Shown here piece by piece: positions 17,749 through 24,756 of a DNA stretch of 64,000 nt (position 1 is its first letter; every line of letters begins with the position of its first letter). The position numbers and the translations under genes were made by a program. The DNA is from a virus (lineage: Duplodnaviria > Caudoviricetes): IMG/VR virus record IMGVR_UViG_3300023174_000047, positions 1 through 64,000 of that record; one strand, 5' to 3'. The notes under the pieces are model-generated. The model saw only the letters and a program-made list of their open reading frames with translations, was not told the origin of the DNA and did no database searches.

Positions 17749-18194
17749 GGGGGTGCACTGGTTTCGATTCAATTAATTGACTCAAATGTGCACGCAGAGG
17801 CAGGCTAGCTAACCTCTATAAAAGCAAGTCAAAACAAAATAAACGCAGAAGACGCACACGTCGAAGCCCTCTTGGCACAAGCAGAATACATCTTCAACAA
17901 TGCTGACGAATTCGTCACCGCAGACGTTGAAGAAATGATGTTTGTCTAAGCAAAAACAATGTTGGATCCCATTAAAGACATTGAGGTAAAGCAATGGGTA
18001 GAGCTGAACGATGCATGCTTTTAAATCAAACATCGGGGTAACTTCAGACCCTTCTCTGAAGTAGGTAGGCTTTAAAACTTAGGTTGATGCGCCGTGCAAA
18101 CCTTTTGCCAATGAAATTGCAAATGCATCTAAGCATGTAGAGCATTTGATGTGACTAATTGAACACTGGGGTTCGACTCCCCACACCTCCACCA
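17749..18194 (+). ncRNA. ssrA: tmRNA
   Basis: 5' GGGGGTG..TGGTTTCGA; 3' GGGGTTCGACTCCCC-ACACCTCC-ACCA with G3:U70; ATAAAC|GCA resume at 17845; tag AEDAHVEALLAQAEYIFNNADEFVTADVEEMMFV*. Confidence 0.93.
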
Positions 18195-20241: not shown

Positions 20242-20700
20242 ACAGAAAAAACATGAACGCTAATTTCACTTGTAACCATTATAGCGGGGCATATAATATG
20301 CCACCGCGAGGTTACAAGTGGCCTGTCTGTCAGTCCTTGAAACAAAGTTAATTTTCAAAATAATTGAAAAACTAAGTTGAAAGATAAGAATAAGACGGCA
20401 TATTAAGATATATAACAAAAGCGGTTCATGACGAGGGATGACCATAACAGCCCAAGAGTTCGCAGAATGCGACGTAAAGCCAAAAGCTGACAGTGTAGAT
20501 TTACGCATATAGGTTTGTAGTGTAGCGCATTGCGCGCAAAGTTCCCTGGTGTAGCCACCGAAAACTACTAATTTAACATCTCAATGACTAACCATTTTAT
20601 AAGCATGTCTTTATCTCAAAGCTCAAAGCTCAAAGCCATCAGACTCTTAAAGTAATAAAGCCTAATCGTCGTGGTTAATCGATTGCTTGCAATTAATTTC
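20242..20700 (+). ncRNA. candidate large structured ncRNA heading the tRNA array
   Basis: ORF-free; long-range helices 20267-77/20310-20 (11 bp), 20252-58/20423-29, 20327-33/20486-92, 20472-77/20499-504; TATAAATA at 20229. Confidence 0.55.
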
Positions 20701-20705
20701 AATTA

Positions 20706-20796
20706 GGAAGAATGGCTGAGTCTGGCTTAAGGCGGTGCACTTGAAATGCGCAGAGGTCTAAAGCCTCCGTGAGTTCGAATCTCACTTCTTCCTCCA
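20706..20796 (+). tRNA. tRNA-Ser(TGA)
   Basis: Type II cloverleaf, GTGCA-CTTGAAA-TGCGC, CCA. Confidence 0.92.
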
Positions 20797-20813
20797 TTCT
20801 CTGCGAGAATAAT

Positions 20814-20888
20814 GGCCACATAGCTCAATGGTAGAGCAGCACATTTGTAATGTGCCGGTTGTTGGTTCAAGTCCGACTGTGGCCTCCA
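20814..20888 (+). tRNA. tRNA-Thr(TGT)
   Basis: GCACA-TTTGTAA-TGTGC, CCA. Confidence 0.93.
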
Positions 20889-20953
20889 CTTTAATAATAA
20901 TCATATCAATACATTCTCGTGCAGGGCAAAGATATTTTCTATAAATTTCAAAA

Positions 20954-20995
20954 GCGGTAGTAGCTCAATTGACAAGAGCGCCTTCCTTCCAAGTA
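20954..20995 (+). pseudogene. 5' half of a tRNA-Gly(TCC)
   Basis: GCGGTAG-TA-GCTC..GAGC-G-CCTTC-CTTCCAA-GTAG, no T arm or 3' acceptor strand. Confidence 0.55.
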
Positions 20996-21005
20996 GAAAA
21001 ATTTC

Positions 21006-21079
21006 GCGTCATAAGTGTTATGTCAGCACGCCGGTCTTCCAATCCGGGAGTGTGAGTTAGATTCTCACATGGCGCACCA
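21006..21079 (+). tRNA. tRNA-Gly(TCC)
   Basis: GCGTCAT/ATGGCGC acceptor, CCGGT-CTTCCAA-TCCGG, CCA. Confidence 0.85.
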
Positions 21080-21087
21080 ATTTCAAA

Positions 21088-21163
21088 CGTCCATTGGTAG
21101 AGTAGTTATTGCACTTGTTTTGGGAACAAGTATTCGTCGGTGCAAGTCCGGCATGGGCGACCA
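21088..21163 (+). tRNA. tRNA-Pro(TGG)
   Basis: C1:G72, CTTGT-TTTGGGA-ACAAG, T-loop TGCAAGT, CCA. Confidence 0.88.
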
Positions 21164-21169
21164 ATTTAT

Positions 21170-21258
21170 GGAGAGTTAACTAGCCGAGGCGCTAGAGATG
21201 TTTGCTAAACATCATGCACTTCCCTAAGAGGTGTGCGGGGCAGGACCGCAGCTCTCCT
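21170..21258 (+). tRNA. tRNA-Ser(GCT), atypical T-loop, no encoded CCA
   Basis: GATGT-TTGCTAA-ACATC, long V arm, T-loop GGCAGGA. Confidence 0.8.
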
Positions 21259-21263
21259 CTCTT

Positions 21264-21343
21264 TTGTAGAGCAGCAATGCTAGTGTGTGGCCGAAAGACT
21301 GATGGTGTGGCGTTTCGGGTAAAACCTCGCAACCATCCTACAA
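21264..21343 (+). ncRNA. candidate ~80-nt multibranched RNA
   Basis: TTGTAG/CTACAA closing stem, AGCA-GCAA-TGCT, GATGGT/ACCATC. Confidence 0.4.
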
Positions 21344-21351
21344 TTTTAAAA

Positions 21352-21440
21352 TCCCCCTTAGCTCAGTGGTAGAGCGCTCGGCTGTTAACCGGGAGGCCCT
21401 TATAAGGTACAGCGACGATCGTAACGTCGAGGAAGAGCCA
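21352..21440 (+). tRNA. tRNA-Asn(GTT) variant with 19-nt variable arm
   Basis: CTCGG-CTGTTAA-CCGGG; T arm CGACG-ATCGTAA-CGTCG; two acceptor mismatches; G73-CCA. Confidence 0.7.
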
Positions 21441-21447
21441 ATTTTAA

Positions 21448-21533
21448 ACACACTAGCAGCAAGTGGCGGTTGCGGGTTCTCTCCAAAAGAACTGTTTTTA
21501 CTAAAGTGGGTTCGATTCCTACCTAGTGTGCCA
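21448..21533 (+). tRNA. tRNA-Trp(CCA) variant with 13-nt variable region
   Basis: ACACTAG/CTAGTGT, GTTCT-CTCCAAA-AGAAC, G73-CCA. Confidence 0.8.
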
Positions 21534-21544
21534 TAAATATATAC

Positions 21545-22354
21545 ATGAACGTCATTTATAATGTTGAGCAATACAATCAAAGCAAAAGCATAAACGCTAA
21601 AATAGGTGTATTGTGTCCATGTTGTACCAATTGGTTTGAAACGACTAGACTGCTGTTACAGCGAGCGTTAAAGTCCAGCAGACTAAAATTTTGCTCTATA
21701 GAATGTGCAAATAAATTTCAATCAGAAAAAATACAGCTTGAATGTGTTTTCTGCAAACAACAAATAGAGAGAGTTGCAAGTCAACTTAAAAGAGTGAAAC
21801 ATGCATTTTGTAATCACTCTTGTGCAGCGCAATTTAACAACAGCTTAAGACCCAAAAAGTTAAAACAACTAAAGAAAGCTAAACCTATAGCAATAGTTGT
21901 TGAACACACTTGCATTAATTGTGGAAAAACATCCATTGTTTCTGCTCATGCTAGTCTCAAAAAGAAATTTTGTTCTGGCAGTTGCAGAAACGTAATTAAT
22001 AATAAAACCATAAGAGGTACACGCTCTAAAGTAGAGAAAGAGTTTGAAGTAGCAATCAAAGCAAATTTTCCAGATTTGAAGTTTAATTGCAATGACAGAC
22101 AAATTCTTGATGGTTTAGAGCTTGATTTTTACTTTCCTGAAATTAAAATAGCAATAGAATTTAACGGTATTTGGCATTTAAAACCAATACGTGGAGAAGA
22201 ACTTTTATCAAAATACAAACAAAGAGATGAACACAAAAAACGTTTATGTGAAGAAAAAAATATCAAACTTTTAGTGCTTTGTGATGAAGTTAGTTCCAAC
22301 AAATCAATTGATGAGCAAGTACACAAAGCAATTACGTTTTTAAAACAATTTTAA
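21545..22354 (+). CDS. putative free-standing homing endonuclease (multiple CxxC/treble-clef modules + Vsr/DUF559-like PD-(D/E)xK domain)
   Basis: CPCC, CS.EC, CVFC, C.HSC, CINC, CSGSC; ELDFYFPEIKIAIEFNGIWH; inserted in the tRNA array. Confidence 0.75.
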   Translation: MNVIYNVEQYNQSKSINAKIGVLCPCCTNWFETTRLLLQRALKSSRLKFCSIECANKFQSEKIQLECVFCKQQIERVASQLKRVKHAFCNHSCAAQFNNSLRPKKLKQLKKAKPIAIVVEHTCINCGKTSIVSAHASLKKKFCSGSCRNVINNKTIRGTRSKVEKEFEVAIKANFPDLKFNCNDRQILDGLELDFYFPEIKIAIEFNGIWHLKPIRGEELLSKYKQRDEHKKRLCEEKNIKLLVLCDEVSSNKSIDEQVHKAITFLKQF

Positions 22355-22356
22355 AT

Positions 22357-22431
22357 GCCTCGTTAGTGTAATGGACAGCACGTTTCGCTACGGACGAAAA
22401 AGTAGGAGTTCGAATCTTCTATGGGGTACCA
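22357..22431 (+). tRNA. tRNA-Arg(ACG)
   Basis: TTTCG-CTACGGA-CGAAA, CCA. Confidence 0.9.
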
Positions 22432-22437
22432 TTCAAT

Positions 22438-22514
22438 GCCCGTATAGCCCAATTGGTAGAGGCGTATGACTTAGGATCATAATGTTGAGGGTTCGAATCC
22501 TTCTACGGGCACCA
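22438..22514 (+). tRNA. tRNA-Leu(TAG) with short variable loop
   Basis: TATGA-CTTAGGA-TCATA, 5-nt variable loop, CCA. Confidence 0.9.
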
Positions 22515-22523
22515 ATTTTAAAT

Positions 22524-22598
22524 AGCTCCTTGGTGTAATGGTTAGCACAGAAAGTTTTGAACTTTCTAGTCCAGGTTCGAGTCCTGGGGGAGCTGCCA
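22524..22598 (+). tRNA. tRNA-Gln(TTG)
   Basis: GAAAG-TTTTGAA-CTTTC, CCA. Confidence 0.92.
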
Positions 22599-22603
22599 AA
22601 TTT

Positions 22604-22681
22604 AGATTACTCATTAACATAAAAGTAATGTAGCTGCCTTTGAAGTAGCATAAAAGGGAGCATTACCCTCTTGGGCTACCA
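22604..22681 (+). pseudogene. degenerate tRNA-Gln(TTG)-like
   Basis: GCTGC-CTTTGAA-GTAGC, T-loop AGCATTA, poorly paired acceptor, CCA. Confidence 0.6.
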
Positions 22682-22697
22682 ATTTCCTTTTAACAAA

Positions 22698-22772
22698 GAA
22701 CCTTAAGCTTTAACAGTGAAGCAAGAAGCTTTTAACTTCTAGAAAACGGAGCATTACCGTTAAGGTTCACCA
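22698..22772 (+). tRNA. tRNA-Lys(TTT), T-loop AGCATTA
   Basis: GAACCTT/AAGGTTC, AGAAG-CTTTTAA-CTTCT, CCA. Confidence 0.88.
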
Positions 22773-22824
22773 ATTTAAACAGTTGAACAACAATTATAAG
22801 AGTATATTTTGTTGTGGATAAAAA

Positions 22825-22899
22825 TCCCAGGAACGCACACGGTTGAGCGGGCTGGCTGTTAACCAGTTGAACGTGGTTCAACCCCACGCTTGGGAGCCA
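22825..22899 (+). tRNA. tRNA-Asn(GTT)
   Basis: TCCCAGG/CTTGGGA, GCTGG-CTGTTAA-CCAGT, CCA. Confidence 0.88.
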
Positions 22900-22941
22900 A
22901 ATTTCAAAATTGTAAGTAAGTGGTCTAATTTAAATTTTAAA

Positions 22942-23028
22942 CGCGGGGTAGTGTAACGGTTAACACGTCTGGCTCATAACCAGAAAACATTATTGCTTGT
23001 GCTGGTTCGAGTCCAGCTCCCGCAACCA
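22942..23028 (+). tRNA. initiator-type tRNA-fMet(CAT) with 16-nt variable region
   Basis: C1xA72 mismatch, TCTGG-CTCATAA-CCAGA, CCA. Confidence 0.82.
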
Positions 23029-23035
23029 ATTTCAT

Positions 23036-23197
23036 ATGAATAAAAATAACGAAAGCTGGAATGAACAAAGTAATCATTTGCAAAAGGCACAAGATATAAA
23101 AAATGCTGAGAAATACGGATATAGAGAAGGGTTTATTCCAATTATCTCGCTGGATTTAATTAAAAAAATCATATGTTGGTTCAAGAAGAAAAAATAA
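23036..23197 (+). CDS. small hypothetical protein (53 aa)
   Basis: ATG 23036 within the track ORF. Confidence 0.5.
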   Translation: MNKNNESWNEQSNHLQKAQDIKNAEKYGYREGFIPIISLDLIKKIICWFKKKK

Positions 23198-23205
23198 TTT
23201 TAAAT

Positions 23206-23281
23206 GCCTGAGTAACTTAGTGACTAAAGTATCTGCCCTACACGCAGACTATCGTGAGTTTGAGTCTCACCTCGGGCACCA
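23206..23281 (+). tRNA. tRNA-Val(TAC)
   Basis: TCTGC-CCTACAC-GCAGA (C33), CCA. Confidence 0.87.
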
Positions 23282-23285
23282 ATTT

Positions 23286-23425
23286 CAGAACATTCAATCA
23301 ACCGCAATTTTAGAGGTCGCTCTTGCAAGCCATGTACCTCTAACGGCTCTGATAACAGGCGCGCTTGCACGAGCCTTGCGAATGTTCTGCGAGCGCCAGC
23401 GGGCTTTGCTACCCCGTGTGGCGCT
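23286..23425 (+). ncRNA. candidate ~140-nt pseudoknotted RNA
   Basis: CAGAACATTC/GAATGTTCTG, TTAGAGGT/ACCTCTAA, GGCTC/GAGCC, loop-loop TGCAAGC/GCTTGCA, 3' hairpin AGCGCCA/TGGCGCT. Confidence 0.6.
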
Positions 23426-23483
23426 AAATTTTTAATTTTCAAATAGACGTTGATAAAGGTTAAAAATAATTTATATTAAATGT

Positions 23484-23756
23484 ATGATTACAATGTTTAA
23501 AACATTTAGAGGCACAAAAGAAGAATTAATAAATCACTTCAACAGTTTTGTATCTTTTGATAAGGACAAAAAGAATTCTAATTCATATTATGAATTAGAT
23601 GATGCACCAATTGCAAAGCAGATTGAAGAAGCAGATGTCAGCAACAAATTCAAAAATGGCGAAAGTAATGATTCATTTGGATTAATATTCCTCCTTTATA
23701 GAAATGAGACATCACTATCTGTGATAAGATCTTATATACATATTGTAGACAAATAA
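23484..23756 (+). CDS. hypothetical protein (90 aa)
   Basis: ORF track. Confidence 0.65.
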   Translation: MITMFKTFRGTKEELINHFNSFVSFDKDKKNSNSYYELDDAPIAKQIEEADVSNKFKNGESNDSFGLIFLLYRNETSLSVIRSYIHIVDK

Positions 23757-23784
23757 ATTTTGCAGCATATATCTCTACACAAAT

Positions 23785-23873
23785 GGACATAGAGCGAGCT
23801 AGTGAACGCAGTGGTCTGCAAAACCACGTGGATTAAATTCCTACGCAGAGTGCGATACTCTGTATGTCCTCCA
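23785..23873 (+). tRNA. tRNA-Cys(GCA) with type II body (18-nt variable arm)
   Basis: 3-bp D stem, GTGGT-CTGCAAA-ACCAC, V stem GTGGA/TCC-TAC, U73-CCA. Confidence 0.82.
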
Positions 23874-23902
23874 ATTCTAGTACGCGTGCGTCCCCAGCGC
23901 TT

Positions 23903-23968
23903 GGCCCGTCGCTGGTTAATCCTAGGCATCTGAGATTCCAAATTTCAGGTGAAGTTAACGGGCCGCCA
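23903..23968 (+). ncRNA. T-armless tRNA-like RNA with CCA(Trp) anticodon loop
   Basis: GGCCCGT/ACGGGCC-G-CCA; D-like stem CTGG/CTAG; 9-bp stem with TTCCAAA loop; 6-nt linker in place of the T arm. Confidence 0.6.
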
Positions 23969-24027
23969 ATTTTATTAGTTGATTTTAAATAGGAAACATA
24001 TTATAATAGTTTTGCTAAACAACAAAT

Positions 24028-24102
24028 GCCTGGTTTGTCCTAATGGATAGGACAGGCTCTTCTAAAGCTTCAATAGGGATTCGATTTCCTCACCAGGTAC
24101 CA
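24028..24102 (+). tRNA. degenerate tRNA-Arg(TCT)-like (anticodon register ambiguous, TCT vs CTA)
   Basis: AGGCT-CTTCTAA-AGCTT best pairing; weak T stem; CCA. Confidence 0.6.
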
Positions 24103-24111
24103 TTTTTAAAA

Positions 24112-24187
24112 TCCTCTCGTCGTACGAAAGTCATCACCCTCAGTTGTGATCTGAGAAAAGACGGAGCGTTACCGTCTAGAAAAATCA
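24112..24187 (+). pseudogene. pseudo-tRNA-His(GTG)
   Basis: CTCAG-TTGTGAT-CTGAG and GACGG-AGCGTTA-CCGTC intact; acceptor and CCA decayed. Confidence 0.65.
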
Positions 24188-24468
24188 TTTCATCTAGCTG
24201 TTACTATGAGGTAGAGACCAAAAGCAACACCCAATAAACCTGAAACTAGAAGTAGAATATCCATATTAACTACACAACAGCAAAAATTTCTTAAAAAAGT
24301 AGTAACTGCAAAAGAAATTCATACAATTATTTATGCTAAATGTGTCTCTAAAAAGAAGTCATGCATTACAGTTAGCGGTATAACACTCTTATAAGAGATA
24401 AGTTTTAATTTAAATTTTACCATGACATATATTTTTAGTTGATAGCCTATTGACTCATCATACATTAA

Positions 24469-24756
24469 ATGCAAATGAACAGTAAATTATATGAATCTGA
24501 TCCCGATCTCTACACTAAGATTGTAGATGATTTTGACCGCAATGAAATTCGCAGCTCTGAGCGCATCATTATTGAAGATTGGGTCGCCAAGGCTCTAATT
24601 GCAGAGACGCTGCTGAGTCTTCTCCGCAAGGACCTCATAGACATTACAGGTTTAGCAGTCATTAATGACGGGCAGGATTTTGAACCGACGTTTGCACAGT
24701 CCGCATTTCTAAAAACAGGATCTGAAGAAATGCAAAAAGAATCACCCAAAACATAA
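24469..24756 (+). CDS. hypothetical protein
   Basis: ORF track 95 aa. Confidence 0.7.
   Translation: MQMNSKLYESDPDLYTKIVDDFDRNEIRSSERIIIEDWVAKALIAETLLSLLRKDLIDITGLAVINDGQDFEPTFAQSAFLKTGSEEMQKESPKT

Follow-up and report, generated by a model that had tools for sequence, protein, structure and literature searches.

A 140-nt segment at positions 23286-23425 on the + strand of the window (the 64,000-nt stretch of DNA analysed here, comprising positions 1-64,000 of an IMG/VR virus record that is 203,774 bp long and has a CheckV completeness of 96%) is a genuine non-coding structured RNA gene, the fold of which has been kept by selection. The RNA defines a previously uncatalogued family found in a narrow clade of uncultured T4-like jumbo phages (~10 contigs). 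The window encodes a T4-type portal (gp20) and gp15, and contains a tmRNA and at least 14 tRNAs (ARAGORN, Rfam). The phage tmRNA is located at 17749-18194 (Rfam, 105 bits), 5 kb upstream of the tRNA array in which the 140-nt RNA lies.

As the sequence-only reading of this stretch had proposed, the RNA is a discrete, GC-rich unit: homologues align end to end, covariance-model matches cover positions 1-140 in all full-length homologues, flanks diverge, and the G+C content of 23286-23425 is 56%, vs. ~37-41% for the surroundings. The first homologue (92% identity) was found in loci around portal homologues, and more, at 84-86% identity, were found in searches of whole records. An exact 24-mer scan of IMG/VR gave no match; looser patterns recovered the family, which was extended by pattern scans of IMG/VR and metagenome contigs, with matches checked with covariance model R1. 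The family comprises 19 matches, corresponding to 15 distinct sequences, from relatives of the window's 204-kb T4-like phage. The RNA is present in one copy per genome, including a single copy in each of three genomes that are 96-100% complete, and is retained in all complete genomes of the clade. Searches with R1 and R2 over 41 and 30 related phage records, respectively, gave matches from the close clade only, and detected no copy in records with portals 57-65% identical, including the complete 217-kb genome G004. A blastn search of 22300-24200 against 50,697 phage records matched tRNAs only, with no cultured phage matching the RNA, and a pattern scan of prokaryotic genome contigs yielded no true copy. 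Three pattern matches in the prokaryotic contigs were discarded as chance matches, since they fail the covariance model and have no tRNAs around them, and one metagenome match (L106), which also fails the covariance model, was discarded likewise. No reading frame is open throughout the homologues, and indels of 1-2 nt occur in the loops; a coding reading of 23286-23425 is therefore rejected.

The fold computed for the window sequence by itself has an energy of −52.1 kcal/mol (z = −2.29; 3 of 200 shuffles as good), which is only modestly better than chance; the strong structural evidence is comparative. In a revised structure, 97.6% of cells are paired over the 15 distinct sequences, and 20 of 48 pairs show changes on both sides, as compared to 12.6 +/- 1.9 for shuffled columns (none of 500 as high) and to 0-3 in a control in which partners were slid by 1-3 columns. 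The family is small, and the stem covariation largely separates the same two or three sub-clades; the number of independent events is thus lower than the cell counts suggest. G-U or U-G pairs occur at six positions and would be A-C on the opposite strand, which assigns the RNA to the + strand.

The fold is a closing helix, P1, leading to a three-way junction with a long arm and a short arm, and a separate hairpin, P4, 3' of P1. P1 pairs 23286-23295 with 23380-23389 (10 pairs, 97.8% paired), with a 1-2 nt bulge in the 3' strand in most relatives. The long arm consists of P1.1, an invariant internal loop, CCGCAA/ACGGCUCUG, and P2, which carries an 18-nt loop, L2. In P1.1, TCA (23298-23300) pairs with TGA (23350-23352), enclosing the P2 hairpin; this helix is 100% paired, with U:A replaced by C:G at 13:67 and with C:G or U-G at 14:66, giving the states UCA/UGA and C(U/C)A/UGG. 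Within the internal loop, an invariant CCG (23302-23304) could pair with an invariant CGG (23344-23346), a possibility that we note. P2 pairs TAGAGGT (23311-23317) with ACCTCTA (23336-23342), seven pairs that are 100% paired. The short arm is a 4-bp helix, P3, with a 12-nt loop, L3; AGGC (23357-23360) pairs with GCCT (23373-23376) in 100% of sequences, with changes on both sides in three of the four pairs and with five states (AGGC/GCCU, AAGC/GCUU, AGGU/GCCU, GGGU or GAGU with GCUC, and GAGA/UCUC). P4, outside P1 at 23392-23425, has 12 pairs, one bulge, and a 9-nt loop with a conserved GCUAC, and is 98.9% paired. P1.1 and P3 were proposed by RNAalifold and also appear in the ViennaRNA minimum-energy fold of the window sequence; they were absent from the model used to make the alignment, so that their covariation is no artefact of fitting.

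The structure originally drawn from the window sequence had five helices, three of which stand and two of which do not. Its closing helix, CAGAACATTC/GAATGTTCTG, is present, with changes on both sides in 4 of 10 pairs among the 15 distinct homologues; its inner hairpin, TTAGAGGT/ACCTCTAA, is present, with 3 of 7-8 pairs changed on both sides (U:A/C:G, G:C/A:U, and U:A/C:G in P2); and its GC-rich 3' hairpin is present and strongly covarying, with changes on both sides in 9 of 12 pairs. The other two helices change in their 3' strands with zero compensation: GCAA/TTGC is paired in 57% of cells and has three of four pairs broken in 8 of 14 sequences, and GGCTC/GAGCC is paired in 77% of cells and keeps C:G at 64:86 in 3 of 15. 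The second loop is closed by P3, in place of GGCTC/GAGCC.

The two loops carry complementary 7-mers. L2 (23318-23335), in which 14 of 18 positions are invariant, contains the palindrome CTTGCAAG and presents TGCAAGC (23324-23330); L3 (23361-23372), in which one position only is variable, presents GCTTGCA (23363-23369). The 7 bp loop-loop helix that had been predicted from these 7-mers is possible in 100% of the 15 distinct sequences, and none of its pairs ever varies. Because the pairs are invariant, covariation (zero for this helix) cannot test it, and the pairing is neither proven nor refuted by the comparison; L2-L3 is a strong candidate for a loop-loop contact. The first search patterns each fixed one loop, such that double mutants could escape, and a later IMG/VR pattern fixed neither; the latter returned the same nine contigs, indicating that the invariance of the loops within IMG/VR is no ascertainment artefact. 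All stems vary, whereas L2, L3, CCGCAA, and ACGGCUCUG are nearly invariant, which suggests a constraint beyond simple pairing. This pattern of conservation points to sequence-specific recognition of the core, or to more than one pairing partner for each loop. The L2 core, CUUGCAAG, is itself a palindrome, and a palindromic core that never varies would suit pairing between molecules, or recognition of some other nucleic acid, just as well. Duplex energies were computed as −11.2 kcal/mol for L2-L3, −10.5 kcal/mol for L2-L2, and −7.5 kcal/mol for L3-L3.

These properties bear on the possibility, which we regard as unlikely though deserving of attention, that the RNA self-assembles, with L2 of one molecule pairing with L3 of the next ('hand in hand') to yield dimers, closed rings, or larger assemblies, as in phi29 pRNA and in the RNA-only complexes of ROOL, GOLLD, and manA. 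The L2-L2 duplex would be nearly as stable as the L2-L3 duplex, and full invariance of both strands would be expected if each loop had to pair with more than one partner. The arms differ greatly in size, with ~14 pairs plus internal loops in one and 4 pairs in the other, so that a plain side-by-side kiss within one molecule would be difficult without a bend in the long arm; the conserved internal loops, however, could supply a sufficient bend. The plan of the RNA matches that of phi29 pRNA (RF00044): in both, a 5'/3' helix leads to a three-way junction, the loops of the two arms are complementary to each other, and a 3' domain that looks dispensable follows the closing helix (PMC4201828). In pRNA, however, the loop pairing is intermolecular and differs among phi29 relatives, whereas the 140-nt RNA has seven invariant candidate pairs; pRNA belongs to small protein-primed phages, whereas the phage considered here has a T4-type portal; and T4-like packaging motors need no RNA. 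The phage-borne RNAs ROOL, GOLLD, and manA often lie beside tRNA genes and form multimers through kissing loops (PMC12286853; bioRxiv 10.64898/2026.07.01.735769); the contacts in ROOL and GOLLD were first predicted to be tertiary and then proved to be intermolecular (PMC12286853), and cages are possible for RNAs of <200 nt (bioRxiv 10.64898/2026.07.01.735769). ROOL and GOLLD are much larger than the 140-nt RNA and show no sequence or model match to it; in Rfam, no pRNA, ROOL, or GOLLD match was obtained, RF00044 being searched at gathering score and at E <= 10. A geometry in which the 5'/3' stem and P4 point outward would follow from self-assembly and is, like it, improbable but not negligible. 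It is likewise a minority possibility that the 140-nt transcript, present in tRNA-like amounts, forms closed rings or cages through L2-L3 contacts between molecules, possibly serving to scaffold or trap a host factor.

The position of the RNA inside the tRNA array, part of the sequence-only reading, holds in relatives. The usual order is tRNA-Val, tRNA-Ala(UGC), the 140-nt RNA, and tRNA-Cys(GCA), with (C)AATTT or AATTTT spacers flanking the RNA, as between the tRNAs. Nine of the 16 full-length loci, counting the window, have a CCA end 4-5 nt upstream of the RNA; this end belongs to tRNA-Ala in six loci, to tRNA-Val in the window and in L090, and in L096 to a CCA-ended unit (flank ending GGTCACCA) at which ARAGORN calls no tRNA. 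In the window, tRNA-Val(UAC), with an encoded CCA, lies at 23206-23281 on the + strand (Rfam tRNA, 57.2 bits), and the RNA starts 4 nt downstream. Downstream of the RNA, tRNA-Cys starts 11-14 nt away in nine loci; it is 200-500 nt away in L102 and L091, and L107 has a tRNA-Trp 350 nt downstream instead. No conserved protein gene adjoins the RNA in the loci compared. In the window, the next ARAGORN tRNA downstream is a tRNA-Arg 602 nt away, and a 90-codon ORF with no Pfam match (23484-23756) is an insertion between the RNA and a tRNA-Cys-like gene; in most relatives tRNA-Cys directly follows the RNA.

The presence of tRNA-Cys 11-14 nt after P4 in nine relatives shows that termination is not the general role of P4. 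In the window, a T-rich tail, AAATTTTT, comes after P4, with a weak terminator-like scan match, and P4 and the ORF are separated by a sigma-70-like site, TTGATA-16-TATATT (23450-23477); with this tail and this promoter-like site, P4 in the window may also end a transcript. The tail, the weak terminator-like match, and the ORF that follows are what would favour a riboswitch or attenuator in which an aptamer at 23286-23389 and P4 as terminator control the ORF at 23484-23756. This reading is largely refuted by synteny, most relatives having a tRNA rather than an ORF directly downstream. The promoter-like site between P4 and the ORF also speaks against it, as do the frequency of terminator-like matches, which are no commoner than in shuffles, and the absence of a conserved antiterminator pairing and of any Rfam riboswitch match, and we hold it to be highly improbable. 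In the purine riboswitch aptamer and in the lysine riboswitch (L2-L3), a P1 helix carries two arms with touching loops, and junction nucleotides are conserved. The 140-nt RNA differs from both in that in most genomes it does not precede a regulated gene, has no Rfam match, and has very unequal arms with a candidate loop helix of seven Watson-Crick pairs.

The proximity of tRNA-Cys in nine loci could also be read as the sign of a self-cleaving ribozyme or of a cis element that aids the cutting or folding of the tRNA precursor, for example as a tRNA-Cys leader, and the compact junction, invariant unpaired nucleotides, and candidate tertiary pairing would resemble those of small ribozymes. Against this stand the distance to tRNA-Cys in L102 and L091, the tRNA-Trp in L107, and the ORF in the window; moreover, such arrays need no more than RNase P and RNase E for their processing, and Rfam 15 gives no ribozyme match at E <= 10. 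We therefore regard a ribozyme or cis element as very unlikely. A hammerhead reading, suggested by CUGAUAA in the window, was rejected, since the motif is not conserved and relatives have CUGGGAU or CUGGAAU.

The usual neighbours bear in addition on a reading in which the RNA, by base pairing or as a decoy, would target the anticodon loops of tRNAs or the enzymes that recognise these loops. L3 presents CUUGCAC, a heptamer that occurs as an anticodon loop of tRNA-Ala(UGC), and UGCAAG in L2 could pair with that loop; the neighbouring tRNA-Ala loop is exactly CUUGCAC in 7 of 14 relatives (the relatives whose tRNA-Ala genes were set against L3 at 23361-23372 being L091, L094, L097, L098, L102, and L103). 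Both usual neighbours, tRNA-Ala(UGC) and tRNA-Cys(GCA), have the palindrome UGCA in their anticodon loops, and all tRNA-Cys loops are CUGCAAA. Phage tRNA arrays have been implicated in escape from defences that target tRNAs (PMC10264068, PMC11464382). The match was noted post hoc, however, and by our estimate a chance 7-mer match has a probability of ~1-2% for two adjacent tRNAs and ~20% for ~25 tRNAs. Moreover, the tRNA-Ala loop varies (UUUGCAC, UUUGCAA, UUUGCAU) but L3 does not; G000 keeps the RNA but has no tRNA-Ala found by ARAGORN; and the heptamers lie in 12-nt and 18-nt loops, rather than in 7-nt loops, and L2-L3 pairing would hide them. We judge a decoy of this kind to be distinctly unlikely. 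An antisense-target reading was also discarded: in the 204-kb genome, sites that could pair with L2, L3, or the junction motif are no commoner than expected by chance.

The array contains further units. In six relatives (L089:681-1128, L096, L095, L102, L108, and L091) the gap between tRNA-Ala and the RNA is a mosaic of other small RNA modules that all terminate in (C)CA followed by ATTT. In module A the ends (GATCGGCGTCTGAA ... TAACGACGAGTATACCCGGTCACCA) are constant and the middle varies; module B resembles a tRNA, carries a large insert, and has GGTTCGAATCC as its T arm; and module C (~205 nt), with GATAG/GCTATC as its closing pairing, shows 75% identity between the L089 and L091 copies. 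The modules beside the RNA differ between relatives, which indicates that the array acts as a string of independent RNA cassettes, of which the 140-nt RNA is the constant member. In the window, positions 22600-22776 contain two CCA-ended units that are called by neither ARAGORN nor Rfam at gathering score and that share a 3' half with an odd T-arm-like hairpin, GGAGCATTACC (repeat D1); by our reading, the second of these (~22697-22773) resembles tRNA-Lys(UUU), its acceptor stem having 9 bp and its T loop being non-canonical. Positions 22826-22900 contain a CCA-ended tRNA-Asn(GUU)-like unit, with anticodon loop CTGTTAA and T arm CGTGGTTCAACCCCACG, that is reported by neither program and that resembles part of the tRNA-Met at 22942 (repeat D4). 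The window tRNA-Val(UAC) at 23206-23281, which was found by Rfam, was missed by ARAGORN; its anticodon loop is CCTACAC, with C at position 33 in place of the universal U, and in the relative L002 (92% identity) the loop is the normal CTTACAC.

Database searches agree with the description of the RNA as an undescribed structured RNA, for which the covarying stems and the lack of a conserved frame also argue. Rfam 15 gave no match over 23286-23425, either at gathering score over the whole window or at E <= 10 over 20500-24500, and at E <= 10 no known ribozyme class or riboswitch matched at the locus. The sole overlap, with the 3' hairpin, came from ctRNA_pGA1 and was below threshold (19.9 bits, the gathering score being 45; E 1.2). 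A Y RNA/YrlA (RF02553) acting with Ro60 was considered and rejected, there being no YrlA match at the locus and no TROVE or RtcB in the 204-kb genome (controls detected). The tRNA model (RF00005) gave no match over 23286-23425 at E <= 10, ARAGORN called no tRNA there, and the 3' end is without CCA. That the segment occupies a tRNA-like slot, with odd tRNA-like units in neighbouring slots, would be in keeping with a decayed tRNA gene, a functionless relic, or a DNA-level signal; but compensation in five helices, invariant loops, strand-specific G-U pairs, and single-copy retention indicate purifying selection on RNA, and, with the tRNA model giving no match, we attach almost no credence to a relic.

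Among known RNAs, the nearest parallels in genomic niche are non-tRNA RNAs of other phage tRNA clusters. In T4 (NC_000866), rnaC (139 nt) and rnaD (119 nt) lie at 70908-71171, at the end of the tRNA cluster, and in a 2022 study of T4 both were still of unknown function (PMC9697503). Like the 140-nt RNA, they are non-tRNA RNA genes located a few nt from tRNAs in a T4-type tRNA cluster, and the length of rnaC is almost equal to that of the 140-nt RNA. The closing stem of rnaC, unlike that of the 140-nt RNA, encloses a tRNA-like T arm (CCGGGUUCGAAUCCCGG, GGUUCGAAUCC); the 140-nt RNA has no T arm in 23286-23425 and no CCA end, and has an extra hairpin outside the closing stem. R1 and R2, run on rnaC and rnaD with filters off, gave chance-level scores, with none on the gene strand better than E ~0.6-8. 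The parallel with T4 species I and II that had been drawn earlier thus holds for genomic niche and fails for homology. In rnaC (L099:2909-3047, − strand), UUGACG is perfectly complementary to a hairpin loop, CGUCAA, and the octamer GAGUAGCG occurs twice, giving a potential for loop pairing. In T5 (NC_005859), RNAI, RNAIII, RNAIV, RNA1, RNA2, RNA2H, RNA3, and RNAX are annotated as 'stable RNA with unknown functions' and, like the 140-nt RNA, are interleaved with tRNA genes, RNA2H lying between tRNA-Val(UAC) and tRNA-Ala(UGC). T5 belongs to a different phage family (Demerecviridae), and R1 and R2 on its stable-RNA region gave chance-level scores (best R2 match 10.5 bits, E 0.54, on the other strand). 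Judged by sequence comparison and predicted fold, the 140-nt RNA represents a new RNA family within a known, still unexplained kind, having the niche of the T4 and T5 stable RNAs with another sequence and another fold.

The reading that we favour, to which we give a little less than an even chance, is that the 140-nt RNA is a stable RNA that is cut out together with the tRNAs and that acts in trans, using its invariant core as a protein-binding surface. From the tRNA-like spacing we infer co-transcription with the tRNA operon and release by tRNA-processing enzymes. The 5' end would be freed by 3'-end maturation of the upstream tRNA, and the 3' end would be freed by an RNase P cut at the 5' end of the downstream tRNA. 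P1 and P4 would then shield the ends from exonucleases, yielding a stable RNA of ~140 nt. The action in trans is the weakest step of the proposal: the loop-loop helix would lock the two arms, and the conserved junction and loop nucleotides would form a specific surface, which may be bound by a phage or host protein, with the RNA serving as a decoy, a sponge, or a subunit of an RNP.

Stable RNAs other than tRNAs, among them T4 species 1 and 2 and the T5 RNAs, were recognised in phage tRNA clusters as early as the 1970s, and the T4 study and the T5 annotation consulted here still assign them no function. The family comprises ~10 contigs from one phage clade with an uncultured host, which limits its immediate impact. 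The 140-nt RNA adds to this class an unrelated, well-defined fold in which variable stems surround an invariant core, and the array in which it lies, a mosaic of further uncatalogued RNA modules, suggests that phage 'tRNA islands' serve generally as stores of structured RNAs. Self-assembly, if true, would make the RNA a miniature counterpart, in a T4-like phage, of the pRNA, ROOL, GOLLD, and manA assemblies. A function found for one such RNA could open the whole class.
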